DNA of 64,000 nt from NCBI GenBank assembly GCA_963803145.1, contig CAWDLW010000015.1, forward strand, positions 160,001-224,000, in the 5' to 3' direction. Position numbers and translations under genes: made by a program. Numbering within the stretch: the stretch's first letter is position 1; each line of letters starts with the position of its first letter. Below the pieces are notes generated by a model, which had not been told where the DNA came from, did not search any database, and worked only from the letters and a program-made list of their open reading frames with translations. Shown here one piece after another: positions 16,477 through 30,333 of this stretch. Source of the stretch: Methanotrichaceae archaeon (GTDB taxonomy: Archaea > Halobacteriota > Methanosarcinia > Methanotrichales > Methanotrichaceae).

Positions 16477-18126
16477 CTAACACATTTTGCAGGCGATAGG
16501 CATTCTCCAGCCGCTGCCAAAGGCTCGATCTGTAACCTTTATTCCAGGAGCAGCCTGCTTCCGCTTGAACTCAGCTGACTTGACAAGGGATAGTACATGG
16601 CTAACAGTCGCTGCATCAAATCCTTGTGCAATGATCTCCTCTGAAGATTGGTGTTGTTGTATATGCATCTCAAGGATTGCATCAAGAATATCGTAAGGCG
16701 GCAAGCTGTCCTGGTCTGTCTGACATGGCCTCAGCTCGGCCGTTGGTGCTTTTGTAAGAATGGCATTGGGGATTATGTCCTTCCTCGCATTTAGCCAGTT
16801 CGCGATTCGATAAATCATGGTCTTGGGAACATCAGATATCACGGCTAAACCACCTGACATATCGCCATAGATTGTGCAATAGCCCACCGCAAGCTCTGAC
16901 TTATTTCCAGTCGTGAGCAGGAGAGAACCGTACTTATTCGAGATGGCCATGAGCAGGTTTCCTCGTATTCTGGCCTGGATGTTCTCCTCAGTCACATCCT
17001 TCTCTAGTCCGCGAAAGGCATCCTTAAGGCTGAGATCAAAGGAACCCATGATCTCATTGATGGGTAGTGTCAGCGTTTTTATGCCCAGTCTGCGAGAAAG
17101 CGTCAGCGAATCATCGATGCTTCCCTGGCTCGAATAAGGCGACGGCATGAGCACACCCAAAACATTTTCGGGACCAAGGGCCTCTGCTGCAACGCTCGCA
17201 GTGAGTGCAGAATCGATGCCTCCCGATAAGCCCAGCAATACTCCCTTAAATCCGCATTTGCGGCAATAATCCCTTATTCCTAAAACAAGAGCGTTCCAGA
17301 TCTCAGCCTCGGGTGTGAAATCATCATCTGCAATAGGACCGAGACGGGACTTCAAATCTACTACTACAATATCCTCCTCGAATCCTTTGCCGCGGGCTAT
17401 GAGCTTGCCGACGGCGCCAAAGGCACAGCTTCTGCCATCAAAAACCAGATCATCATTGCCCCCAATCTGGTTGACATAGATAAAAGGAACTCCGTACTTG
17501 TGTGCCATGCCGCCCAGCATCGCCTCGCGGTGAAGCTGCTTGCCAACTGAAAATGGTGATGCTGATAAATTGATGATGGCCTCTGCTCCGACTTTCACAA
17601 GCTCCTCAATTGGATCTGTGTGATAGCGCCTGCGCTTCCAGAAATCGCGATCATTCCAGACATCCTCGCAGATAGATATACCCATTTTGATTCCATCTAA
17701 TTCAAGAATCTGAGGATTGTATCCTGGTTCAAAATAGCGATCCTCGTCGAATACATCATAAGTTGGCAGCAAAGTCTTATGAAAGGTTCGTATGATTTTG
17801 CCGTCATGCAGTAATGCAGCTGAGTTGAAGAGTGGCCTGCCTTCTAACGCTGGATTAGGGGCAGCTATGCCCACCAGCGCCGGTATACATCCCGCCAGCT
17901 CTTTGGCGAGATTCTCTAGGACATGCCAGCTTCGACTGATGAAGTCTGCATTCAGAAGTAGATCGCGAGGCGGATAGCCCAGGAGAGCAAGTTCTGAGGT
18001 TATCGCCAGATCCGCATCAATGCCTCGAATGGCATGAGATATTAGATCTGCATTGCCTTTCAGATCTCCAACTGTTGGATTGAGCTGCAGTAGCGCAAGT
18101 TTCATTTCAGGTTTAATAGCACGCAT
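16477..18126 (-). CDS. nadE: Glutamine-dependent NAD+ synthetase
   Basis: Nitrilase domain (ELALLGYPPRD, KTLLPTYDVFDE, ICEDVW) and synthetase domain (LGLSGGIDS, ENIQARIRG, TGNKSE). Confidence 0.95.
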   Translation of the reverse strand: MRAIKPEMKLALLQLNPTVGDLKGNADLISHAIRGIDADLAITSELALLGYPPRDLLLNADFISRSWHVLENLAKELAGCIPALVGIAAPNPALEGRPLFNSAALLHDGKIIRTFHKTLLPTYDVFDEDRYFEPGYNPQILELDGIKMGISICEDVWNDRDFWKRRRYHTDPIEELVKVGAEAIINLSASPFSVGKQLHREAMLGGMAHKYGVPFIYVNQIGGNDDLVFDGRSCAFGAVGKLIARGKGFEEDIVVVDLKSRLGPIADDDFTPEAEIWNALVLGIRDYCRKCGFKGVLLGLSGGIDSALTASVAAEALGPENVLGVLMPSPYSSQGSIDDSLTLSRRLGIKTLTLPINEIMGSFDLSLKDAFRGLEKDVTEENIQARIRGNLLMAISNKYGSLLLTTGNKSELAVGYCTIYGDMSGGLAVISDVPKTMIYRIANWLNARKDIIPNAILTKAPTAELRPCQTDQDSLPPYDILDAILEMHIQQHQSSEEIIAQGFDAATVSHVLSLVKSAEFKRKQAAPGIKVTDRAFGSGWRMPIACKMC

Positions 18127-18245
18127 ATAGATTTAAAGCCGATTGGACCTTGTATTACAAACAAGTATAAGGCGCTATGATGAAATGGCCTGACTGATCG
18201 GTGATGAGGATATTGAGTTCTGAGCGCCTTTTAGAGATCAAAAAT

Positions 18246-19226
18246 CTAAAGATCTTTATGAGGCACAAGGTCGCACCCTGTACATTTATAGCAGCCTGTC
18301 AGAGCTAGATTTCCCTGAAGATCATTCCTATCCAGAGATTTTCGCAGATAGCATGCGAGGCCCAATAGTCTCTCAGATGAAGGCCTGATCATATCGATTT
18401 CGCCGATACGTAAGGGATGAGGGTAGACTGCCCTTAAAACAGGAAGCACTCCCACCTCTGTTAGCTCATCAATTCCTGAACGCAGTGTTTTATCAGATTC
18501 GCCTAACCCGATAATCACATTGGAGAAAACTCTATTCTTGCCGAAGATAGCAACTGCCTCTTCAAGCGCATCCATGATACCCATATAAGAAATGCCCGGG
18601 CATACCCTTCCAAAAAGGTCTTGATCGAGGGTTTCGATATTGTACTTCACTTCATCAGCCCCAGCGCTTTTCAGAATCTTGTTTACACCTGGGAAAGGAC
18701 TTATTGAGACTCCGATTGGCACTCCGATACCTTTGGCCTTGAGATCTCTGACTATTCCAGCTATCCTTTCAGCCTCCCGCTCGGGCGAGACCTCAACACC
18801 TGAGGTAAGAGAGACAGCTCTCAATTTGCCTGTATCTGCGGCCTTATCGATCATTCCACCTACCAGCGCAGATGGCTTCACCCTTCCGCACAGCTTTGGT
18901 ACAGCGCAGAATTTGCAGTCGTAGATGCATCGCTCAGAAACGGTGATATACGCCTGTTCAGGACAGTGAAGAAGAGGCTCAACAAGCTCGCCTTGTGCAA
19001 CTTTTTCGCCTCCATGAAGTATCTCCACACCATTTTCGAGCCTTTTCAGGCTTAGCTCTGATTTCTCTACAACACTCAGCCTTACAATCCGATCTCCAGA
19101 GCGGAAGAAGATAGATTGTCCTCCGGCACCAGGGCCGGACGTAGATGATAGGCCGAAGGGTCCATGCTCCGCCATCTCTATCGTGCCTATCGAGATAAGG
19201 CGTGCTTTGGTCTCAAGATCCATCAA
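18246..19226 (-). CDS. Radical SAM protein (biotin-synthase-like, archaeal)
   Basis: CIYDCKFC motif; C-terminal CYKCTGCD. Confidence 0.85.
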   Translation of the reverse strand: MMDLETKARLISIGTIEMAEHGPFGLSSTSGPGAGGQSIFFRSGDRIVRLSVVEKSELSLKRLENGVEILHGGEKVAQGELVEPLLHCPEQAYITVSERCIYDCKFCAVPKLCGRVKPSALVGGMIDKAADTGKLRAVSLTSGVEVSPEREAERIAGIVRDLKAKGIGVPIGVSISPFPGVNKILKSAGADEVKYNIETLDQDLFGRVCPGISYMGIMDALEEAVAIFGKNRVFSNVIIGLGESDKTLRSGIDELTEVGVLPVLRAVYPHPLRIGEIDMIRPSSERLLGLACYLRKSLDRNDLQGNLALTGCYKCTGCDLVPHKDL

Positions 19227-19279
19227 CTTTCTGTCTACTCACATACCTTAAAGAAATTATCCTATCATATATCTCAGAG

Positions 19280-19747
19280 ATGATTCTGCATCTCTTCCAT
19301 GACGGCAAATGTCTGGCAGATGTGGCCTATCTTAAGGATGCCATTGAGGTATGCTATGGTGTCTATGGTTTAAGGGTGCAGGATCGAGGATACCTCTATG
19401 TGCCTTTAAAGGGGCAGCTTCTGGATGCTGCGAAACTGCTGAGGTATCTTGAAATCGCTGCAAACAAGCGAGCATCGCTCTGGATAATAGGCGGCAAAAT
19501 CTTTTACCCTGGCTCCGGTTTTGTCTTCGGCTGCTCTGCTGAAATGTGTGCCGTCTTATCGGCAGCTGAGATGGAGCCTGAGATCCTCGCCAAAGAGGCG
19601 CTACATGAGGTCGGCCACATCCTGGGCCTGGGGCATTGCAGCAAGAGCTGTGTGATGAACCTCTCAGATTCAATTGAAATGGCAAAGGAGAAGCCTTCGT
19701 TCCTCTGCTCTAGCTGCTCAGAACGAATAGGATTCCCCAGGATCTAG
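19280..19747 (+). CDS. Archaemetzincin-like Zn metalloprotease (M54)
   Basis: KEALHEVGHILGLGHC..SCVM and C-terminal CSSC; start placed at ATG 19280. Confidence 0.85.
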   Translation: MILHLFHDGKCLADVAYLKDAIEVCYGVYGLRVQDRGYLYVPLKGQLLDAAKLLRYLEIAANKRASLWIIGGKIFYPGSGFVFGCSAEMCAVLSAAEMEPEILAKEALHEVGHILGLGHCSKSCVMNLSDSIEMAKEKPSFLCSSCSERIGFPRI

Positions 19748-19998
19748 ACAACTGTCACAATATTGCTCTGGCCGAGGATCGGCCTGTTGATATCATAAGC
19801 GAACATCCTGAAATCGTACTGACCAGGCTCCATAGATGCCTGAAGGTTATCTCAAAGTAGCTATTACTAGCACAGCTACTATCATTAGAACCGATGGCTT
19901 CAATGGCCTCATGCTCATATATCTATAGCGATTGCTCGAGGGGTATAAAATGATATGGTGCCATTCTTCAGCCAGCTATTTAAATAGGGATTGCCATT

Positions 19999-20484
19999 AT
20001 GGAAGATATGGATTGTAACAAAGACTGCCACAAAGTCTGCCAAAAAGGCTGCCAGGAGTTCTGCACATGGGTAGAAAACATGCCATACCATGTGCATTAC
20101 GTTCTCCCAAAGGAGAAATATCCAAAGCTTCCCGAATGCTTTAGTGAGACTATGCTTGGGGAGATGTTCAACGGCGCAGGGCGGCAGCTTCGTGGGCCTT
20201 ACGGAGCACATGTGCATGAGTTCGAGGACAGGTGGGTCATTCACAGGGATAAGGCCGATGCGGGCGTTGATCCCCTTGGCCATCTGGTCAAGGATGCACC
20301 TGAGTATATCGCTTCCATTGTCCTGAGCGCTTTAGTTGGAGGACTACTGGGCAGACATGGCAGGCAGCAGGCGCTTTTGGCTGCAAGCCTGGCAGGCACA
20401 TTTGCCTTCGTCTCCGGAAAGGTCGTAAAGATGCTTAATGGTGATCCTGCCGAGGGCGAGGGGGATGCCCCAAGGATAAGCTGA
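19999..20484 (+). CDS. Hypothetical membrane protein
   Basis: 161 aa; Cys-periodic N-terminus; HVHEFEDRWVIHRD...DPLGHLVKDAPE; two C-terminal hydrophobic helices. Confidence 0.7.
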   Translation: MEDMDCNKDCHKVCQKGCQEFCTWVENMPYHVHYVLPKEKYPKLPECFSETMLGEMFNGAGRQLRGPYGAHVHEFEDRWVIHRDKADAGVDPLGHLVKDAPEYIASIVLSALVGGLLGRHGRQQALLAASLAGTFAFVSGKVVKMLNGDPAEGEGDAPRIS

Positions 20485-20520
20485 ACTTAAGTTGAACTCG
20501 CGTCAAGTTGTAAAGGGATC

Positions 20521-21168
20521 ATGGCCATCTACGATTATCTGGTTTATTTCCTATATGCGTTCACATCAATATTCGTCATAGTTAACCCCATCGAGGCCAC
20601 GATGGTCTTTATCTCTCTTACAACGGGTATGGAAACAGAAGAGAAGAGGAAGATCTACAAGCATACCACGATAGTAGCCTTTGAGATAGCGTTTATATTC
20701 GCAGTAGGAGGAGATCTCGTCCTGCGGTTCTTCGGCATAACAGTTGATTCGCTGCGTGTGGCAGGCGGCATTCTGCTGTTCTTAGTGGCGCTGGATATGC
20801 TTCGCGGCGGAAGACAGCAAAAGAAGGTCACTGATGCTGAAATGAGAGATGCGAATACCCGAGAAGACATCTCAGTCTTCCCGCTAGCAATGCCGCTTTT
20901 GACAGGCCCAGGTGCAATAACAACAGTAGTCGTATTGATGGGCGCAGCTGCTACCATTCCTGAGAAGGCGATGGTCATTCTTGCCATAACGCTGACATTT
21001 GTATTGGCCTACTTCATTCTCAAGTTCTCGGAGTTCATTGATAGAGCGCTCGGCATCACAGGTATAATGGTCCTGACAAGGATATTGGGGCTGATACTTG
21101 GAGCCATTGCCGTCAATTTCGTGGCTACCGGTACGTGGAACTTATATCAATCGTTTGCACACGGCTAA
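20521..21168 (+). CDS. MarC-family integral membrane protein
   Basis: IVNPI...FFGITVDSLRVAGGILLF...VFPLAMPLLTGPGAIT...RILGLILGAIAV. Confidence 0.92.
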   Translation: MAIYDYLVYFLYAFTSIFVIVNPIEATMVFISLTTGMETEEKRKIYKHTTIVAFEIAFIFAVGGDLVLRFFGITVDSLRVAGGILLFLVALDMLRGGRQQKKVTDAEMRDANTREDISVFPLAMPLLTGPGAITTVVVLMGAAATIPEKAMVILAITLTFVLAYFILKFSEFIDRALGITGIMVLTRILGLILGAIAVNFVATGTWNLYQSFAHG

Positions 21169-21433
21169 AAATCAAATAGCAACTTTTCCATCTACGATTT
21201 TCTTTTGATTTGAAGGGCACTATCGTTTTCTAAAACATTCTCCTGAAGAGGGGTTAGGGGCAATCCGCGTGAGCGTTAGAGCGCGCTAGAATGACCCTTA
21301 GTTTTAGCCCCGGAAGAAGTGTAAAGATAATAACCATTTTCAATCTCGGAGCGCGATTCAATCCCTACCTAAGGAAGAACCATAATGTCTTGCGGTTGAA
21401 TCTTGTTCTTTTGGTAATAACGAAACAAAACTT

Positions 21434-21650
21434 CTAATAATCAAGCAGCGACTTATGCTTCTGCGGCTTTGCATTTGCCGTCTCGCCGAAGCTCATCAGG
21501 CTGTTCCGCTTCATATCCTGGCAGAGCTTTGTTCTATTTATCCCGAAGGTCTCGAATGTTCGGAGCACCGGCGACAAAAGCTGCTTTTCGATGTAGCATT
21601 CCATGTCTATTGAGATGATCTTCTCAAGAACATACTTGCGGTCTTCTGCC
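21434..21650 (-). pseudogene. Diverged duplicate of the last 217 bp of polB (25737-25953)
   Basis: Colinear without indels; about 33 mismatches in 217 bp by hand count; reads AEDRKYVLEKIISIDMECYIEKQLLSPVLRTFETFGINRTKLCQDMKRNSLMSFGETANAKPQKHKSLLDY*. Confidence 0.92.
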
Positions 21651-21847
21651 AGCTAAATTCTGTTATATGCTAAAGCATAGAATGCCTTGCCTGAGTGCTT
21701 CCTGGTCATATCAGCAGTGATAACCGCGTATATGCCCATCTGCAATGATGAGTCTAATAAAACATCCAAGATATCAAAGCATAATTTCATGCTCATAAAA
21801 ATGAATGAGCTGATCCTAAGGTTTGCACACGCCCAAGTAATCTTGGA

Positions 21848-23653
21848 TCAGCCCGTCACAGTAAATTGCTCCTGCAAAAGCCACTGATCATTCACATAGA
21901 CATCTACCGTCCAGTCGCCGCGCGGGTCTGGGGCGGAGTTGGTCCCGTGATATGAGTAGCCTTCCTCCTCAGCACTTCTTTGAGCGTCCCATACATTGCT
22001 CTCGCCCCAATTAAAATCTTGAAGCATGCCAGGAACATCTATAAAATCCCAGACGTTGTAAGACGCATAATAGCCACCGTTCGGATTGGGCGGAATGTTA
22101 TAGGTATGTGTTATTTCATAATTTTTACCGTTATTAGTATATTCTCCGCCTTTCCAATCCCATTCGATTCTAGCAGCTCCAATATTTCCCAGCTGCAACC
22201 AGGAGTAAGGCACCAGAGTATCCTTGATTTTGTCGGTTTTCGTGGTTGTAACTGGCTTGCTGGTAGCCTCATCAATTTCGCTTGCCATGCAATGATCAAG
22301 GAGGGTGAAGGTGCCGAGTATAATACCAGGACCAGGCGTTACATTAGAGCCAATCGTCGCTGTTCCTGAGCCGATTTTCAGATCGAATTGCTCAGTCAGG
22401 CGCTTCTTGCCATTAATGTAGACATCTACATGCCAATTGCCCGACATGTACTGTTCCTTTGGTATATCGGCAATATCTAGACCATACCAGACATTGTAAG
22501 AAGGCCAATAGCCACCATTCGGATTGCGATCGATATCAACTTGACCAGTTTTGTAAGGATTGCCATCTGGAGAATACCAATGCCAAGTTACTGTGGCTCC
22601 TAGAATATGTCCTAAATTCAGCCAAGAATAGATTTTGCTATCAGCACTTGAGAACGTGCTGGTTCTAGTAATCACATTATTGGTAGACTCATCGACGTTG
22701 CTTGCCATACAATGATCAAGAATTTCGATGGAGTATAGGCTTGTCAAGTTTATGCCAGTGGCGTTGGTTTCAGGAACCCATGCAGATTGATCTCCCAGTT
22801 CTCTCGCCGTGGCGTAGGCTATATTTGACTCATTAGCTCTTCCGAGCGCCTTTAGAGCATAGCCTTTGTTAGTCCAGACTATTGAAATATCCGGGGCAAG
22901 CTCAATGGCTTTATCATAAGCCTGGAGAGCCTCCTCATACTTTCCTTGCTTAAAGAGAGCTTCGCCTTTGCTATTCAATGCCTGCCAGTTCTGGAAATTG
23001 TTGGGATCAGAATTGATAGCCTCATCGTAGAAGTGAATGGCTTCGTCATATCTTCCTTCGCCCTTGAGATTATCGCCTTTAGTAATAGCCAGATAGTATC
23101 TGTTTTGATTGTACAGATCCTTGTAAGCGAACTCGTCCGATTTGGTAAGATTATATTGATACTGATTTTCTGGCGTTGCGGCCTTCTGACCTTCTGATAT
23201 CGAAAAATACTCAGTGAGCATCTTCCTGCCATCCAGGAAAACATCTACATGCCAATCACCAGGGCGGTTAGCTGCATTCTTTCCAGCAATATCGATAGAA
23301 GACCAGATATTGTAGGCATTCCAGTAGGATCCGCTTGTTGGCATGGGGATCTCCGCGCTATCCATCTCTAGTATTTGGCCATCTGGAGAGTACCAATTCC
23401 AATGGACCGTACCAGACCCAACATCTCCCAGGCTCAGCCAGGAATATGCTGTGCTATCGTTTACAGAGAACTCTTGGGTTCTGGAGATAACAGCCCTGGA
23501 GGACTCGTCGATGCTAGTAGCCATGCTGTGATCAAGAACAGATACATCGAGAACGCCTTTGCTATCCCAATCAGCTGCTGTTGTCTGACCAAATGCTGGA
23601 GGGGATAGCAGTGCCAGCATAATCAAGATCAAAACGAGCCTGATCCCTTTAAT
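21848..23653 (-). CDS. Secreted TPR protein with three copies of an Ig-like module
   Basis: TPRs (WQALNSKGEALFKQGKYEEALQAYDKAIEL); repeated LDH.MA..DE...YSWL.LG...W.W.SPDG...G.W.VDVY module; track start is TTG 23632, SD suggests ATT 23653. Confidence 0.85.
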   Translation of the reverse strand: MKGIRLVLILIMLALLSPPAFGQTTAADWDSKGVLDVSVLDHSMATSIDESSRAVISRTQEFSVNDSTAYSWLSLGDVGSGTVHWNWYSPDGQILEMDSAEIPMPTSGSYWNAYNIWSSIDIAGKNAANRPGDWHVDVFLDGRKMLTEYFSISEGQKAATPENQYQYNLTKSDEFAYKDLYNQNRYYLAITKGDNLKGEGRYDEAIHFYDEAINSDPNNFQNWQALNSKGEALFKQGKYEEALQAYDKAIELAPDISIVWTNKGYALKALGRANESNIAYATARELGDQSAWVPETNATGINLTSLYSIEILDHCMASNVDESTNNVITRTSTFSSADSKIYSWLNLGHILGATVTWHWYSPDGNPYKTGQVDIDRNPNGGYWPSYNVWYGLDIADIPKEQYMSGNWHVDVYINGKKRLTEQFDLKIGSGTATIGSNVTPGPGIILGTFTLLDHCMASEIDEATSKPVTTTKTDKIKDTLVPYSWLQLGNIGAARIEWDWKGGEYTNNGKNYEITHTYNIPPNPNGGYYASYNVWDFIDVPGMLQDFNWGESNVWDAQRSAEEEGYSYHGTNSAPDPRGDWTVDVYVNDQWLLQEQFTVTG

Positions 23654-23763
23654 GAAGATCCCTCCTTATTCCGCCTATTTGACGAAAATTGTGAAGAGTT
23701 CCCAGCCAATAGGCAATCATGATAATTCATCCTCTTGTTCCATGATATCCCGAGGAGATAAAA

Positions 23764-23791
23764 AGGCTGGGGCAATCTCTCATTTCCCAGC
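23764..23791. terminator. GC-rich hairpin between the two TPR genes
   Basis: ggctggg...cccagcc inverted repeat. Confidence 0.35.
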
Positions 23792-23834
23792 CCTGATTCT
23801 ATTTCCCTTGCAAATCCGGCATCTTATTCGGAAG

Positions 23835-23936
23835 TTTTCCGGATAATTTCAGAGCTTGATCCATATAGCACCATGCATTAGCATCCTGAGGATCGATCTT
23901 TATAGCCAATTCATAAGCCTTGATTGCCTCGTTATG
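23835..23936 (-). pseudogene. Orphan TPR repeat fragment
   Basis: Reverse strand reads HNEAIKAYELAIKIDPQDANAWCYMDQALKLSGK, directly after the stop of 23968-25530. Confidence 0.65.
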
Positions 23937-23967
23937 CGGTCCTTCGCCGCTAGGAAATCACTCTTTC

Positions 23968-25530
23968 TCAGTACCACCATTCATCGTCAATTTCAGGATC
24001 GATCTCTATGGACTTATTGTAAGCGCTAGCCGCTTCATCGTGTTTGCCCAGGTCATCAAGAGCCATGCTTTTTAGGTACCATGCATCCGCATCTTTAGGA
24101 TTAATATCGATAGCCTTGTCGATAGCTTGAATGGCATCATTGTACTTTCTCTGACCATAAAGTGCTTCGCCTTTAAAATACCAGGCATCTGCATCTCGTG
24201 GATTTAGCATAGTGGCATTATCAAAAGCTTGAATGGCCTCATCATACTTGCCCGACTTGCTGAGGTTAAGACCCTGATAAACTAAATTAATTTCGTCTGA
24301 TAATTCTTCTAGTGTCAATTGTTCTTTTTTGGAATTAACCGATTTATTTCCTGATGGCCCTGTTGATTGTTCTCCGGATATGGAGAAATACTCTGTGAAT
24401 GCTTTCTGGCCATTAAGGTAAACATCCACATGCCAATCTCCAGGCAGGTTAGCTGCGTTATCTCCGGCTATATAGATATAAGACCAGACGTTATAAGAAG
24501 GCCAATAGTCACCGCTTGGAGTAGGAATATCAACCGTTTCATTTCTGTAAAGATTGCCGTCGGGAGAATACCACTGCCATTTGACTGTGCCATTTTCAGC
24601 CTTTCCCAGGCTTAACCAGGAGTATGCTTTGCTATCGGTACTGGAGAATGTGTAGGCTCTAGTGATCACATTATTGGTAGATTCATCGACATTGTTTGCC
24701 ATTATGTGATCTTTAACAAAGGTGCTGGATGCGGGAGTTCGGCCAGGTGCTGAACTAGGGTTGATGGCTGCTGCATTGCTCATCGATGCAAAATTGCCGT
24801 ATCCCAGCTCGCTAGCCTTCGCATAGGCTGCCTCCGCCTCTCCGGTTCGGCCCAGCTCCTTTAGAGCATCGCCTTCGCTTGACCAATAAAGCCCTTTGTT
24901 TGGCCTCAGCTGAATAGCCTTCTCGTAAGCCTCCAAAGCCTTATCGTATTTGTTCAGCGCCCAGAAATTATTGCCGATTAAATTCCATGGAGACGCAAAA
25001 TAAGGGTCCGATTTTATGGATTCTTTCAGGATATCCGTGGACTCGTCATACCTTCCAGTATCAGACAGGATCCATCCCTTTCTGTACAGAGCCCAGGCGT
25101 CTTTTGGATTTGCCTTAATTATCTTATCAAGGCTTTCAATAGCTTTAGACTTTGAGGGGTTTTCAAATGCTTTTTCTATCCAATACAATGTTGTGTTCCG
25201 GGCGGTCATATTTTCTGCATCTACCAAACCAGGTGAAACTGACTGGAAGCCAAAGCCCCGCAGGACCATATTGAAACCGTTCTGATAGAGGTCACCGTTA
25301 ACGATAGGCTCTCCGCTGCCCGTATCGATCCCTCTAAAAGTAACATCCTTGGTCAAAACTACGCTCTCATTATAAATCCCGCTGTACACATCAATTGTAT
25401 CATTTGGATGTGCCGCATAAACCACAGCTTGAATGCTTGTGCTGTCGCAACCCCTCAGGCATACAGTCTCATGCGCTGATGCAAATCCTGCTATCAGTAA
25501 GATAACTAGAATTGACAGAATTGGTTTCAA
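23968..25530 (-). CDS. Secreted TPR protein with N-terminal pectin-lyase/NosD-like stub and one Ig-like module
   Basis: GGAGGAG SD and TTG start; signal peptide; SIQAVVYAAHPNDTIDVYSGIYNE; several TPRs (DADAWYFKGEALY); YSWLSLG...WYSPDG...GDWHVDVYLNG. Confidence 0.88.
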   Translation of the reverse strand: MKPILSILVILLIAGFASAHETVCLRGCDSTSIQAVVYAAHPNDTIDVYSGIYNESVVLTKDVTFRGIDTGSGEPIVNGDLYQNGFNMVLRGFGFQSVSPGLVDAENMTARNTTLYWIEKAFENPSKSKAIESLDKIIKANPKDAWALYRKGWILSDTGRYDESTDILKESIKSDPYFASPWNLIGNNFWALNKYDKALEAYEKAIQLRPNKGLYWSSEGDALKELGRTGEAEAAYAKASELGYGNFASMSNAAAINPSSAPGRTPASSTFVKDHIMANNVDESTNNVITRAYTFSSTDSKAYSWLSLGKAENGTVKWQWYSPDGNLYRNETVDIPTPSGDYWPSYNVWSYIYIAGDNAANLPGDWHVDVYLNGQKAFTEYFSISGEQSTGPSGNKSVNSKKEQLTLEELSDEINLVYQGLNLSKSGKYDEAIQAFDNATMLNPRDADAWYFKGEALYGQRKYNDAIQAIDKAIDINPKDADAWYLKSMALDDLGKHDEAASAYNKSIEIDPEIDDEWWY

Positions 25531-25736
25531 TTTTGACTCCTCCTCGCCTCAAATGTTAGCAATTGCAGTTACATAGCTATAAATTTTGGGCCAAAGGTGA
25601 GAATAGCTTAGTTCTTTACTTAATGCGGCATAGAACTTCTTCAAGCGGCTCCCTTCAAACCGAATTCTGGAGGTGTATTAACCTTCCCTCTAATTGAGCA
25701 CAGCCCTGTCTGCCAGCTCAATCCTTTTATACACCA

Positions 25737-28412
25737 CTAAAAATCAAACAGCGACTTCTGCTTCTGCGGCTTTGCCTCTGCAGCCTCGCCGAATCCCATG
25801 AGGCTGCTCTGCTTCACATCCTGGCAGAGCTTTGTTCTATTTATGCCGAAGGTCTCGAATATGCGGAGTACCGGCGGCAAAAGCTGCTTCTCGATGTAGT
25901 ATTCCGTGTCTATGGGAATGTTATTCTCAAGAACGTAACTAGGATCCTCTGCCCTGTCCACAAATAATCCCTTTTTGCGGCTGTTTCCTCTGATGATCAC
26001 AAAGGGCACACGATCGCCAACGCCCGGAACCTGGCCACCTCTCTTCTTGATCTTTTCCACAAGCTGAACATGCGGCTGCTTATTCTTGTATGAGGCCGTG
26101 CCCTTGGTGTACTTCCTGGTCAACGTCAGGTCATCGATAATTCCAGGGTCCTTCTGAAGATCGAGGTTTCTCAGCCTATCAAGTACAGAGATGATATGAT
26201 CCTTCGCCTCCTCAACCTTTCCTTCCTTTAGGACAAGCTCAAGGCAGATCTTCAAAGTCTTGGATGTAAGCTCACACCAGTCTCTCCGTACCGTCTCCAT
26301 GCCACGCACTTTGATTCGGTCCTTCCATCCATCGCCTACGGGCTCAAAGACCCAGAGCGCATACCTCTTCTTCGTCAGGAATATCGCCCTTCTGGCAAAT
26401 GCCTCGAACACAAGCTCCATAGGCTCTGGGAGACTGGCAGTCACCGTCTCGGCGATCTTTTTGCCGATTAGCTCAGCATCCTGCAGAGACACCGCTTCCT
26501 CAGAGGACTTTAGCCTGACAAATACGCTATCTGTATCACCGTAAACTACGGAGAGGTCGAAGCGTCTTGCACCGGATTTTCCAAAATCAAGCTCCTTCTC
26601 AAAGACGACAGTGCCGTCGACTACATAGACTGACCCTATATCATCTATGAGCTGTTTTGTCTTCAGTATGTTATCCCTACCAAAGCTTGTGACTGCATTT
26701 GCGACCGCCAGGCTGTAGAGCCTTGCACGAGCGTAACCCGAGTAGCCATAAAAGCTGTTAAGGAGAATCTTCATAGCATACTGCTTCGCGTCCAGAAAAC
26801 GCCTCTCATCTTCGCTAGCTTTTTTCATGAGCTTCTTTGTGTTCGTTCTCTGATCCAATAGCTCATGGAGCACTCTCGGCATTATACCCGGAAAGACCTC
26901 CGGAGGTACAAACCTGCCGCCTGATGGCGAAGTTATTATACGTCCGGCCGGGATATTCTTTAATTGATCCATATGGCCAATATGATCCTCTGTACTCTTT
27001 CCTGTGATCACAGTAGAGTAGCAGAGGTTATGGGCCATCATAATTGTAGGATACAGCGATTTGTAATCGAGTATGACGACATCTTCTAGCAAGCCCTTTT
27101 CGGGATCGAGCACTGCCCCGCCCTTCAGCTCGTCGTTCTCAATATACCGCTCATCAGAGACCTCAGCATCAGGTTTAGGAGGCACCACCCTGTTTTGCTC
27201 TCTGAACCTTCTTAATAGAAGGCTTTCAACCATCCCGCTCTGGCCGCCGTTCACTATATCCTGCAGGAGAGAGCCGCTTGCACGCGAAAGAGCAATGTAC
27301 TTATCCATCAGCCGCAGCTCTAAAAGAAGCTTCTGGGCGAGGACTGCATCCCTTCGAGAGTAGCTTATGAACCGACGCAGGCCCTCGCCGCCCTCGGCCC
27401 AGAGAGACTCGATCTCCTTCGGATCGACATCATACTTCTCCATCTTGAGAAGCTCTGCTGAAGCGTTCCTCAGAGTGTACTGCTTGAGGCTGAAGGATGA
27501 TCTGATTATCGGCAGGAGATCTACGACCACACGGCCTGTAATTGATACATTGGTTGAGTTGACAATCTTTCTGATATACCATGAGCTGCCCTCTCTGCCA
27601 ACCCGGACGTTGATGTTCAGATTCTTCGCTCTTTCTTCTAAGTAAGGGAAATCGAACTCGTTTGAGTTGTAGCCGGCGAGGATGTCAGGGTCGTAATCTT
27701 TTATGATCGATATAAAGCGGGATAGAAGATCATGCTCGTCATCGCAGGATTCGATATCCTGCCTCTGACAATCTATCCTTTTGCCAACGAGCACAAGATC
27801 TTTCAGGCCATTGTACTCGGGCTCAAATGCCATGCTGATCAGAATGACGGGAGATATATCGGCCTTCGGCATCTCACCCTTGTTCGGCAGACATTCTATA
27901 TCGAAGGACATGTGCCTCAGGGGAGCATTTGCATCGTGCTGCACAGGCGATAATGAATCGAAGTTTACGATGGGCGCCTCATCCTTAACCCACTCTGGCA
28001 GTTTGGCATCGACCCAAGCCATGCCCCCGAGGCCGGAGTCTATCAAAAATCTGTTCCTGAAAAGTATATCGGTCTCATAGACGGCCTTCACCCCCGGAAC
28101 CTCTCGAACGCGTTCCCTGAGAGATCTGACCTCTTTAGGATCTTTGGTTGTGATCTTCAGCATCCTTTTTGGAGAGGTCTGATAGCCTATGGGCTCAAAG
28201 CGCTCGATTGCCTCGACCTCAAGTCCCATCTCACGCAGATCCTCGGCGGCCTGATCTATGCAGCCGTCTTCAACGCCAGCGTAAAAGTAAGGCCTGAAGC
28301 CAGCTACCCTGCAGGTTACGCTTCTGCCTTCATCGGTTTCGCCGAAGAGCTGAACTAACGGCCTCCTTTCAGAATCATAAGTATAGTTGGCATCGAGGAT
28401 CTGGAAGAGCAT
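25737..28412 (-). CDS. polB: Family B DNA polymerase
   Basis: Exo I SFDIE, Exo II YNSNEFDFPYL, DYKSLYPTIM, KILLNSFYGY, YGDTDS, KKRY, C-terminal PIP box QKSLFDF. Confidence 0.97.
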   Translation of the reverse strand: MLFQILDANYTYDSERRPLVQLFGETDEGRSVTCRVAGFRPYFYAGVEDGCIDQAAEDLREMGLEVEAIERFEPIGYQTSPKRMLKITTKDPKEVRSLRERVREVPGVKAVYETDILFRNRFLIDSGLGGMAWVDAKLPEWVKDEAPIVNFDSLSPVQHDANAPLRHMSFDIECLPNKGEMPKADISPVILISMAFEPEYNGLKDLVLVGKRIDCQRQDIESCDDEHDLLSRFISIIKDYDPDILAGYNSNEFDFPYLEERAKNLNINVRVGREGSSWYIRKIVNSTNVSITGRVVVDLLPIIRSSFSLKQYTLRNASAELLKMEKYDVDPKEIESLWAEGGEGLRRFISYSRRDAVLAQKLLLELRLMDKYIALSRASGSLLQDIVNGGQSGMVESLLLRRFREQNRVVPPKPDAEVSDERYIENDELKGGAVLDPEKGLLEDVVILDYKSLYPTIMMAHNLCYSTVITGKSTEDHIGHMDQLKNIPAGRIITSPSGGRFVPPEVFPGIMPRVLHELLDQRTNTKKLMKKASEDERRFLDAKQYAMKILLNSFYGYSGYARARLYSLAVANAVTSFGRDNILKTKQLIDDIGSVYVVDGTVVFEKELDFGKSGARRFDLSVVYGDTDSVFVRLKSSEEAVSLQDAELIGKKIAETVTASLPEPMELVFEAFARRAIFLTKKRYALWVFEPVGDGWKDRIKVRGMETVRRDWCELTSKTLKICLELVLKEGKVEEAKDHIISVLDRLRNLDLQKDPGIIDDLTLTRKYTKGTASYKNKQPHVQLVEKIKKRGGQVPGVGDRVPFVIIRGNSRKKGLFVDRAEDPSYVLENNIPIDTEYYIEKQLLPPVLRIFETFGINRTKLCQDVKQSSLMGFGEAAEAKPQKQKSLFDF

Positions 28413-28613
28413 CGGTTTATAAATACAAATTTTTACTTAAATAACTATCCTACAAGCCCTCATGGATATGGTATGACTCAAATGATCAGGAAGATTCAAA
28501 AAAGAATGGATAGGCCCCAAAGCTTTCTCATCCCCCGAGGAGGTGAGATTATCTCTTATATTCCAGCTCCTTGGAGGAAATCCCTAATTTTCCTTTAGGT
28601 ACAGATTTCTATC

Positions 28614-28745
28614 CTATTTCTTCGGGCTGAACTTTATGGCTCGATCATACACGATTTCTGAGTAGAATGGACCGGTCTTTGTGGAGTTCTCCATGTAGAT
28701 TCTAAAGGTAATTACAATTGGTTGATTCAGCTTTATGCCGTGGGC
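28614..28745 (-). pseudogene. Orphan 3' end homologous to the gene at 33212-34696
   Basis: Reads AHGIKLNQPIVITFRIYMENSTKTGPFYSEIVYDRAIKFSPKK* versus AYGINLDQPLMIAWRIYLEKATKIGPSYSEIMYDRAIKFSPKK*; about 32 mismatches in 132 nt by hand count. Confidence 0.88.
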
Positions 28746-28878
28746 GTTGGGGTTCCTTGCATTGACAAATGCTTCATTTGCTTTATGATGCGACCAAAAG
28801 ATAAGCAGAGGGCACCATAACCTGTGGGATGCCCTCCTATTAAGAATATATCCGGATTTGCTGTATTACTCCTAGATG

Positions 28879-30333
28879 CTAACTAACTCTCTTGACAGGC
28901 GGCGGCGACCAGGTGCCATCCGGGGCCTCTCTTCTCGGCGAATAAAGGCGCATGTAGATGCTCATGGGCTCTCTGGGCGCTGGCAGCCAGTTGGACATTT
29001 TATCCAAGCTGGGGGTACTGTTCTGAATATAGATATCCAGTGAGCCATCTTTATTGTAGGTGAGATTGCTGCGATCTCCTATTGCATAGCGGTTCAGGCT
29101 GTTGGCCACTGGGAAACCCTCGGCATCATACATGGTGACCGACCAGAAGGCATCTGCAGGCGGCATCTCGCTCTTGTTGAAGTGGAGCACGTAGGTACGA
29201 TTCCCATCTGGTGGGTGGCCATCGGCATCAACCTGGAGGATCGGATAGATGTTATCCTCGGGAAGGGTGGCAACAAAGCCTACCATGGTAGTCATGGCTC
29301 GCTTGAGATAGTAGTTGCCATACACGCCTACTGTATTGGTATTAATTAACCAGCCATTTACGAGCTTTCCCATAGTCGGGATCTTTACCTTCATCTCGAA
29401 TAAACCATCTTTTGTAGCATTTTGGAGAGCCAGCTTGACCGCCGGATCAAGGCTATTGAAGTCGAAGCTCTTGCCTGGCTCAATTCCAATCCTCTTCATC
29501 ATGGCGATAATGGGCTGATCAGTGATATGTGGAGGGTTGGCCTTCATGAGCTCTGCTGCATAGGAGAAGTAGATCGATGCATTCATGGAGTTCACCTGGC
29601 GCAGGGGTGGCGTGGTCATATCCACAGTGGGATCGATGGTTGCATTCACAGGTATCGGCTCCTTGCCCCACTGAGATAGGGGTGTGATCTTGTAGCCATC
29701 TTGTACCTCATGGGCAGCATCCAGATCATTCGGGCCGCTGACATAAGTCCGACCGAGAACGAGCACTAGCGGCGTGGGGGCGTCGATACGCGTTACTCCT
29801 TCTGGCAGGGTGCCGTTCCAGCTCTTCCAGACTAGAGCGAAGTTGCCTGCAATAGTTCCCGTAGTGCGCTTGCCGGGCGCTGCGAAGCAGTCGGTCCACA
29901 TATCAAACATCTGCAGGAAATAGTACCTTCCTCCGGTATCAGGCACTGAAACTATCAGGGGCTCTTTCGTCAGGTTCAGCCAGGCACTAGAGTATAATGT
30001 ATCGAAGTTGAGCCTGGTTGCATCCTTATAACCCGCTGATGGGAAGTTGCGAAAATGGGTGAATGTATTCATTGGACCGCGTCCCTCCACCTCACCGGCC
30101 TCGACATTGGTCATCTGCCGCCGGCTGACATCCATAGTCACCAGGGGATAGAGGTAGATGTAGGCATCCAGGCCTATATCATAAGCCTCCTGGTATGCAG
30201 ATGTGTTATCTTTTGTTTCATTTGTGATAATATCATTGCCTTTATCTTGCTGGGCAAGACATAGACCGCTCAACAGCAGGCAAAGCAAAGCCGCCACGGT
30301 CAAAAGCGGCTTCAGAATAGTCCGATGTTCCAT
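28879..30333 (-). CDS. DUF1254/DUF1214 domain secreted protein
   Basis: NFDTLYSSAWLNL..EP, GRYYFLQMFDMWTD, FWSVTMYD, NWLPAP, MRLYSP; start placed at ATG 30333 (AGGTGA SD, signal peptide). Confidence 0.9.
   Translation of the reverse strand: MEHRTILKPLLTVAALLCLLLSGLCLAQQDKGNDIITNETKDNTSAYQEAYDIGLDAYIYLYPLVTMDVSRRQMTNVEAGEVEGRGPMNTFTHFRNFPSAGYKDATRLNFDTLYSSAWLNLTKEPLIVSVPDTGGRYYFLQMFDMWTDCFAAPGKRTTGTIAGNFALVWKSWNGTLPEGVTRIDAPTPLVLVLGRTYVSGPNDLDAAHEVQDGYKITPLSQWGKEPIPVNATIDPTVDMTTPPLRQVNSMNASIYFSYAAELMKANPPHITDQPIIAMMKRIGIEPGKSFDFNSLDPAVKLALQNATKDGLFEMKVKIPTMGKLVNGWLINTNTVGVYGNYYLKRAMTTMVGFVATLPEDNIYPILQVDADGHPPDGNRTYVLHFNKSEMPPADAFWSVTMYDAEGFPVANSLNRYAIGDRSNLTYNKDGSLDIYIQNSTPSLDKMSNWLPAPREPMSIYMRLYSPRREAPDGTWSPPPVKRVS

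Follow-up and report, generated by a model that had tools for sequence, protein, structure and literature searches.

We analyzed a stretch of 64,000 nucleotides (nt) from the genome of a Methanotrichaceae archaeon (assembly GCA_963803145.1, contig CAWDLW010000015.1), in which the 3′ end of the family B DNA polymerase gene polB occurs twice in the same orientation, on either side of two genes for tetratricopeptide repeat (TPR) proteins. This stretch, hereafter the window, is C15:160001-224000 of genome G000, a draft of 51 contigs and 4.13 Mb with an estimated contamination of 6.77%. Two congeners, G001 and G002, and the further genomes G016, G003, G017 and G070 were used for comparison. In the direction of polB transcription the window carries the polB gene body, its live 3′ end (tail B), the TPR gene pair, the second copy of the 3′ end (tail A) and the convergent gene marC. 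The features are listed in Table 1 together with those of two other loci of the same genome.

Table 1. Positions of features at the polB locus (window coordinates) and at the mutS and atpG loci (contig coordinates) of G000
Feature	Position	Strand	Description and evidence
marC	20521..21168	+	Ancestral convergent neighbor of polB; Pfam MarC E 1.1e-59
Relic C	21165..21200	-	Oldest scrap of the polB end, 35 nt, reads EKLLFDF and stop; position, register, short match
Dispersed repeat copy	21216..21416	+	Occupies most of the interval that separates relic C from tail A; BLAST, 26-copy alignment
Tail A	21434..21650	-	Displaced second copy of the polB 3′ end, a pseudogene, ...KPQKHKSLLDY and stop; 85% over 217 nt
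J'	21645..21667		Direct repeat of 23 nt next to tail A, at its body-side end; 20/23 identical to J
Two-gene cassette	21790..25660	-	Conserved, common to G001 and G016; blastn, boundary alignments
TPR protein, 594 aa	21848..23632	-	Three copies of a non-TPR domain of about 120 aa; Pfam TPR families, weak DUF2914, internal repeats
TPR protein, 520 aa	23968..25530	-	Pfam TPR families
J	25709..25731		Partner of J', 23 nt, 5 nt downstream of the live polB stop; 20/23 identical to J'
Tail B	25737..25953	-	Last 72 codons and stop of live polB, ending ...KPQKQKSLFDF and stop; repeat search, alignment
polB	25737..28412	-	Family B DNA polymerase, 891 aa, intact; Pfam DNA_pol_B E 3.7e-111, DNA_pol_B_exo1 E 8.8e-38
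mutS	C30:3977-6634		All five MutS domains; locus L157, C30:3977-11966
mutS short tail relic	C30:8897-9084		174-187 nt, 78% identical
mutS 3′ copy	C30:9791-10849		1062 nt, 96.6% identical to own gene
atpG	C36:9222-10163		ATP synthase gamma, Pfam ATP-synt; locus L156, C36:9222-13305

A repeat search returned one family with two copies of 217 nt, 85% identical, in the same orientation and at a spacing of 4303. The MAFFT alignment of the two copies was free of gaps along their whole length, and the two methods agree with the original prediction, which had described a gap-free copy of about 85% identity ending at the stop codon. On the forward strand both copies open with CTA, the stop codon in reverse complement, and since one of them forms the end of the polB open reading frame (ORF), the repeat consists of the last 72 codons of polB plus the stop. 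Past the stop codon similarity did not exceed chance: in a local alignment of 21340-21433 with 25655-25736, 393 of 2000 shuffles reached the observed score. When the entire 4.13-Mb genome was searched with tail B, the only strong matches were tail B itself (E 8.9e-110) and tail A (E 6.3e-65). Full-length orthologues of the live gene are 94% identical in G002 and 92% identical in G001, a full-length match was present in 41 of the 41 genomes of the class that were searched, and of 219 nt compared, tail B agrees with the tail of G002 at 203. It ends in a motif that we take to be a PCNA-binding (PIP-like) box.

Tail A does not behave as a coding sequence under selection. Compared with tail B and the tails of G001 and G002, it has 21 private substitutions, which fall on codon positions 1/2/3 as 5/9/7; the G001 tail has 11 private changes, distributed 2/1/8. 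The nonsynonymous divergence (dN) between tails A and B is 0.141 and the synonymous divergence (dS) is 0.37 (dN/dS 0.38), consistent with the earlier observation that changes of both kinds separate the copies, while the whole of polB compared between G000 and G002 gives a dN of 0.031, a dS of 0.477 and a dN/dS of 0.065. Translated, tail A reads ...LAEDRKYVLEKIISIDMECYIEKQLLSPVLRTFETFGINRTKLCQDMKRNSLMSFGETANAKPQKHKSLLDY followed by a stop, and it is altered at residues that are invariant in the tails of 27 of 27 relatives (for example TEYYIEK, with its Y changed to C, and QKSLFDF, with Q changed to H and F to L). An in-frame TAG stands directly upstream of the homology. Because of the spread of its private changes over codon positions, its dN/dS and the in-frame stop, tail A is a neutrally decaying pseudogene.

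The place of tail A next to marC, at the native position of the polB end, corresponds to the arrangement in other genera. There marC is convergent to polB at 13 distinct loci (four genomes and nine metagenome contigs), with a distance below 500 nt at 10 of them, so that the adjacency of polB and marC in relatives, which the original prediction had raised, is borne out. At three of these 10 loci (L088, L092 and L094) the two stop codons overlap, and the marC strand reads GGCTAA followed by AA.TCAAACAGCGACTTCTGCTTCTGCG. The two genes abut or overlap, leaving an empty site, in G003, G017, L088, L091, L092, L094 and others. In the window CTAAAAATCAAATAGCAACTTTTCCATCTACG comes directly after the marC stop (21166-21168) and aligns in the same register as the overlap in L088, L092 and L094. 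We read this stretch, relic C, as a third and older polB tail that marks the ancestral junction of marC and polB; its stop overlaps that of marC in just the way of the live polB stop at those three loci. It matches L092 at 21 of 28 nt past GGCTAA by hand count and is 19/21 identical by BLAST, with an E value of 0.006 in a local and 0.22 in a genome-wide search. The genome holds a better-scoring match at C12:48827, the end of another gene. That gene ends in ...KRQKSLFEF and a stop, and C12:48827-48856 shares 90% nucleotide identity over about 30 nt with the polB end, so that two different genes appear to have kept the DNA sequence of a PIP-like C-terminus. As nucleotide conservation of this end motif is not confined to polB, the identification of relic C leans on position as much as on similarity, and it is the exact position together with the register that makes it convincing.

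Between relic C and tail A lies a copy of a dispersed repeat, which gave 82 BLAST hits in G000 including itself (at least 80 other places, for example C43:26701-26846 and C12:217913-218085). The repeat is about 100-200 nt long with a GC-rich core, ..CCCCCGAAGAGGGGTTAGGGGCAGCCCGCGCGGCGATTGAGCGCGCTAG.., and it is specific to the genus: G001 has 19 matches and G002 at least 40, and it is absent from G016 and G003. There was no match to it in Rfam. Its plus strand folds modestly better than shuffled sequences (z -1.7), and a role as the promoter of a gene family was rejected, as no conserved ORF comes after its copies. The repeat may represent either a structured RNA or a mobile element of miniature type.

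A second, shorter pair of direct repeats, J and J', flanks the TPR genes. J' opens with the 6 nt TCTGCC, which read GGCAGA on the coding strand and at the same time close the tail homology, and GGCAGA is common to the body-side ends of both tails and to J and J'. In the genome as a whole, both strands considered, J and J' form the only pair within 3 mismatches, the next best having 5. Along the coding strand, the polB body is followed by GGCAGA, tail B with its stop, 5 nt, J (17 nt), a further GGCAGA, the cargo, J' (17 nt), a third GGCAGA and finally tail A with its stop, the 23 nt of each short repeat being made up of the 17 nt and the GGCAGA after them. Two direct-repeat pairs are therefore nested, one of 217 nt at 85% and one of 23 nt at 20/23, with the cargo flanked by the 23-nt pair inside the tail repeat. 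This order appears unlike that left by one attachment (att) site pair or by a simple single-crossover integration. It fits an inserted segment J-GGCAGA-cargo-J'-GGCAGA whose far end was joined or re-primed at GGCAGA inside polB. A third J-like copy after the stop of tail A was considered and dropped because the local alignment there was at chance. Near the TPR pair of G001 and G016 we found no J-like motif within 6 mismatches. Inverted repeats do occur in 17000-30000, none of them bounding the unit.

We next turn to the cargo. As the original prediction had it, only two TPR genes lie between the copies: the proteins of 594 and 520 amino acids (aa) are the only ORFs with family hits there, and the non-coding gaps inside the unit are shorter than 340 nt. 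Both proteins have a hydrophobic N-terminus, and both are predicted from sequence to be secreted. G001 carries both genes, with their order unchanged, on contig C62 (82% aa identity; 84% and 79% nt), as does G016 on contig C44 (78% aa), and the 594-aa gene also occurs in G070, its orthologues being 82%, 78% and 65% identical in aa in G001, G016 and G070, respectively. In these three genomes the flanks of the TPR genes differ each time, and polB is not adjacent. No tail relic was found near the pair in G001 or G016. At the ends of the conserved cassette, 139 nt (21651-21789) and 76 nt (25661-25736) are specific to G000. Domains specific to the cassette were found beside polB in 0 of 115 polB locus records, the only match being a homologue of 31-36% identity about 5 kb away in L104, and a viral contig collection contained no relative of the 594-aa TPR protein or of the polB tail. 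The cargo is thus a conserved chromosomal gene pair that is not recognizably mobile. Residues 5-101 of the 520-aa protein have tblastn matches in G016, G003 and G017 (loci L041, L042 and L044). These N-terminal residues, about 100 in number, resemble the start of a long secreted protein of beta-helix type, whose gene sits between an archaemetzincin gene and marC in other genera and is missing there in G000. The only Rfam match was a sub-threshold hit to SNORD25 at 21738-21814 on the plus strand (29.1 bits, gathering score 39, E 0.004). It lies in the genome-specific DNA between J' and the cassette; the ATGATGA and CTGA boxes are readable, with a spacing that is long for an archaeal C/D RNA.

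No integrase, transposase, Cas1 or recombinase family was found by Pfam in 42 of the 44 ORFs (at least 120 aa) of the window, in line with the earlier statement that no integrase is visible. The duplication itself was found in G000 alone. A second polB tail, searched for with residues 819-891, was present in 0 of the 40 other genomes of the class and in 0 of 106 locus records containing a polB 3′ end, two flagged records being split alignments inside the gene. For this count 115 records were screened, including 6 re-fetches of genomes already covered and 9 that lack the polB 3′ end. Closer relatives were sought in metagenomes, where the best of 80 loci was 77% identical and no extra members of the genus were found.

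Homology between the window and the two congeners breaks off precisely where marC stops (21169 and 21164) and where polB stops (25738 and 25739). On the far side of polB it likewise breaks off in both, about 60 nt before the gene starts (28470 and 28480). The conserved block is polB alone, and its neighbors on both sides differ in all three genomes of the genus. In G002 the flanks of polB map to contigs C18 and C30 of G000, with marC 230 kb away, and in G001 a single 20-kb stretch maps to five different contigs of G000. Gene order in the genus is thus broken into very small blocks, with rearrangement rife, and in such a setting a polB block that stands alone is nothing out of the ordinary.

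We also considered when, and from what source, the two tails parted. In a maximum-likelihood tree tail A falls within the clade of the genus (support 98/99). Within the genus the best tree pairs it with G001 at a support of 21/13, and a clade of tails A and B is not rejected by the approximately unbiased (AU) test (p-AU 0.41). Site counts are only suggestive, with 6 sites grouping tail A with G001 against tail B with G002, 3 grouping tails A and B, and 2 grouping tail A with G002. The sliding identity of polB to G001 and G002 shows no clear step that would mark a recombination breakpoint within the gene. If the copies were identical at the time of the event and tail A has been neutral since, the divergence values for tails A and B correspond by our own arithmetic to a divergence time of about 0.13-0.185 substitutions per neutral site. 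Half of the dS between G000 and G002 is 0.24 over the whole gene and 0.13 in the tail. Because the divergence time of the tails is near these values, the event that stranded tail A would be old, roughly of the age of the split from G002.

To learn whether polB stands alone, G000 was compared with itself on contigs of at least 5 kb, retaining direct repeats of 90-700 nt, 72-98% identical and 0.3-40 kb apart, whose end coincides with the stop codon of an ORF of 150 codons or more. This gave 339 repeat pairs and 43 candidate rows, of which the mutS and atpG loci were followed up. Downstream of mutS come, in order, a BNR-repeat gene, the short tail relic, a PemK-family gene, the 3′ partial copy of mutS and an IS630-like transposase. 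G002 has mutS, PemK and the partial copy without the BNR gene and the extra tail, and the short relic of G000 sits exactly at the site of the live tail of G002. The older relic of 1062 nt is common to both genomes. Four-taxon site counts (7 for the short relic with G002, 3 for the live tail with G002, 1 for the live tail with the relic) hint that the live mutS tail was imported along with the BNR gene. The 1062-nt relic is about 91% identical to the G002 orthologue, against 96.6% to its own gene, which suggests gene conversion between the live mutS and this relic. mutS in G000 thus shows the same stacked-relic pattern as polB.

The second locus is less clean. A 332-nt copy of the atpG 3′ end, 89.6% identical, lies 2.8 kb downstream of the gene. 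We rejected atpG as a clean parallel because the DNA just past its live stop is common to G002, which places the copy inside a stretch specific to G000 and not at the native end. The tree of the atpG tails is not significant (support 78/86 for the relic with G002; p-AU 0.19 for the live tail with the relic), and we treat atpG as a looser case only. PIN and HicA/AF2212-like toxin-antitoxin genes lie between the two atpG copies, and DUF1828/DUF1829 and DUF6978 genes follow the second. Among the other candidate rows, a purS-like gene (C23:31115-34391), a HEAT-repeat gene (C8:485887-506224) and a histidine kinase (C15:43886-59357) may be paralogues rather than displaced tails. The genome-wide look for similar displaced tails, which the original prediction had proposed, thus yielded mutS and, less clearly, atpG.

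We suggest, with a probability of roughly 0.55, that insertions driven by recombination or repair regenerated the end of polB and left the old end behind, with no site-specific integrase involved. The starting point was polB and marC as convergent neighbors with overlapping stop codons. In the lineage of G000, DNA would then have been inserted between them at least twice. Since the stops overlap, any insertion would truncate polB, and only events that supply a complete fresh end would survive, so that selection among rare rearrangements is the simplest account. In the first event a 35-nt scrap of the old polB end would have stayed on marC as relic C, next to which the dispersed repeat now lies. 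In the second, about 4.1 kb of chromosomal DNA, the TPR gene pair, would have come to separate the polB body from the 217 nt that ended the gene at that time; these would have been stranded as tail A, which has decayed neutrally since. The agent would be the cell's own recombination or repair, acting either by homology-anchored illegitimate recombination with DNA bearing the 3′ part of polB or by a replication template switch, with the far end joined in either case at the 6-nt microhomology GGCAGA. We favor the cell's own machinery because no recombinase was found, the cargo is chromosomal, the repeats are long and variable in length (35 and 217 nt at polB; 174-187 and 1062 nt at mutS) and a microhomology lies at the boundary.

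Several points weigh against this proposal. The 23-nt J and J' that flank the cargo are not explained by simple homology-anchored recombination, and they could instead be what a mobile cassette has left, either att-like sites or a target duplication. It is conceivable that an integrase acted in trans or has since been lost, for which the age of tail A (dS 0.37 to tail B) allows time. The donor arrangement of polB, J and TPR pair was found nowhere among the locus records searched. The tree gives tail A no firm place within the genus, and the fresh tail may have been either imported or copied in place. While the sequences show the three nested copies and where they lie, the decay of tail A, the former adjacency to marC and the chromosomal character of the cargo, the steps of the mechanism, like the order and age of the events, are inferred, and none of the steps was observed. 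Finally, the duplication is unique to G000, with its fragmented assembly and estimated contamination, and none of the listed public contigs bridges the key junctions at 21650 and 25737. Independent confirmation of the assembly was not obtained: among public reads, 8 runs contain small shares, none of the listed ones being RNA, only short contigs fit the window, and two pieces of run X5 match window 21138-21288 and 21472-21620. The best public run may be the source sample itself, in which case the fit of its pieces would not be independent support. That the structure rests on one draft assembly is the main weakness of our account.

It is possible that a site-specific integrative element carrying a mimic of the polB 3′ end was inserted by a tyrosine or serine recombinase, lost since or supplied in trans, with J and J' or the tail itself as att sites. 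Such an element would account for direct repeats flanking the insert and a displaced tail at the native position, J and J' are unique in the genome and of att-like length, and three nested copies would suit the repeated use of one target. We nevertheless consider it unlikely. The recombinase search came out empty in 42 of the 44 ORFs of the window, the cargo pair is conserved at other places of the chromosome in three further genomes, a second tail was absent from the genomes and locus records searched, and neither the 594-aa TPR protein nor the tail has relatives among viral contigs. The relics are also unequal in length (35 against 217 nt), and a simple attL/attR pair that took in the tail would not have J and J' on the side of tail A where they lie. 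The original prediction had proposed that the cargo entered with replacement of the 3′ end of polB. The replacement is partly supported, in that the downstream copy is a displaced, dead polB end at its native place on the marC side and polB has a second, intact end. The idea of cargo belonging to an integrating element is not supported, given the chromosomal setting of the TPR genes in G001, G016 and G070, repeats of 217 nt compared with archaeal att sites of 29-69 bp in the part of Krupovic et al. 2019 (PMC6563490) that we draw on, the lack of a second duplication in the genomes and records searched, and the missing viral relatives.

A purely internal duplication, by template switch or unequal exchange at GGCAGA with the TPR pair copied or moved from within the same genome, strikes us as similarly improbable. 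The microhomology at the boundary would be expected of it, the clade of tails A and B is not rejected, and the divergence time of the tails overlaps half of the G000-G002 dS, whether gene-wide or in the tail. The presence of the TPR pair in the congener G001 means that it could be native. A tandem duplication, however, predicts J-like sequence past the stop of tail A, where similarity was at chance, and twice as many sites group tail A with G001 and tail B with G002 as group the two tails. At mutS the short relic goes with G002 at 7 sites and with the live tail at 1, which suggests that the tail there was imported. The phylogeny of the tails, a check proposed in the original prediction, places tail A inside the genus, and in the phylogenetic sense either tail may be the original one. 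An assembly chimera of two related organisms, with tail A as the end of the other's live polB, could draw on the draft state and estimated contamination of the genome and on the lack of a listed bridging contig, and it is very unlikely, given that the substitutions in tail A are neutral in pattern and hit invariant residues, that the longest identical run between the copies (about 28 nt, read from the alignment) is too short to mislead an assembler, that both flanks are collinear with the expected neighbors, and that mutS has the same architecture on another contig, with its older layer common to the 7-contig genome G002.

The recombination or repair proposal can be set beside known processes. 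Homology-facilitated illegitimate recombination was reportedly described in naturally transformable bacteria by de Vries and Wackernagel in 2002. It belongs to laboratory bacteria and usually deletes recipient DNA, leaving no duplicated gene end, and we know of no case from archaea. The polB locus is like it in having one end in a conserved homologous gene and the other at a microhomology of a few bases (GGCAGA), with no need for a dedicated recombinase; it differs in that a duplicated gene end was left, the host is an archaeon and we identified no donor. Microhomology-mediated duplication and template switching during replication or repair predict a collinear repeat of the sequence past the stop. 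Short direct repeats at the boundary and a re-copied segment flanking the insert are shared with this process, but the collinear repeat is missing here, and template switching alone does not explain the 23-nt pair of J and J'.

The closest described phenomenon, as far as the part of the paper used here goes, is the integration of archaeal elements at 3′-distal regions of protein genes, which accounts for 14 of 68 elements (Krupovic et al. 2019, PMC6563490). The polB locus is like those elements in that DNA has been inserted between direct repeats where a conserved gene ends, in that a working end is kept and in that more than one insertion can stack on a single target. Unlike them, the polB unit has no integrase or element-type genes that we could find, carries a chromosomal gene pair and is seen in one genome only. 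The att sites given there measure 29-69 bp (median 45), with one of 13 bp, in contrast to the repeats of 217 nt at 85% and the older relic of 35 nt at polB. Casposons, described in the same part of that paper (PMC6563490) as self-synthesizing transposons with Cas1 and a family B polymerase that insert at gene 3′ ends, bring a family B polymerase gene and 3′-end insertion into one picture, as here. In G000, by contrast, polB is a chromosomal orthologue found in all 41 genomes and is the target rather than the cargo, no Cas1 family was present in the 42 ORFs scanned, and no inverted repeat in 17000-30000 bounds the unit. We conclude that the process resembles known 3′-end-restoring integration in its outcome, and that the structure does not look like a mobile element.

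Beyond this locus we offer only a tentative extension, which we hold to be rather doubtful: across the genus the 3′ ends of core genes (polB, mutS and perhaps atpG) may serve as homology anchors for the integrase-free insertion of chromosomal DNA that comes from further copies of the genome or from related species, each event stranding the resident gene end, with stacked dead tails forming a datable fossil record of serial insertions and some relics kept similar to the live gene by gene conversion.

If the cargo was instead moved by a trans-acting recombinase at the 23-nt J, the locus would represent a new, small archaeal mobile unit. If the integrase-free reading of polB is true, ordinary recombination can insert several kb behind essential, tightly packed archaeal genes, in this case a convergent pair whose stops overlap, while the genes are kept intact. 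A duplicated gene end alone would then be no evidence of a mobile element, which is a caution for annotators, and stranded gene ends would record the order and rough age of insertions. The signature of gene, cargo and decayed tail would also provide a means of finding recombination-driven gene gain in heavily rearranged, uncultured archaea.

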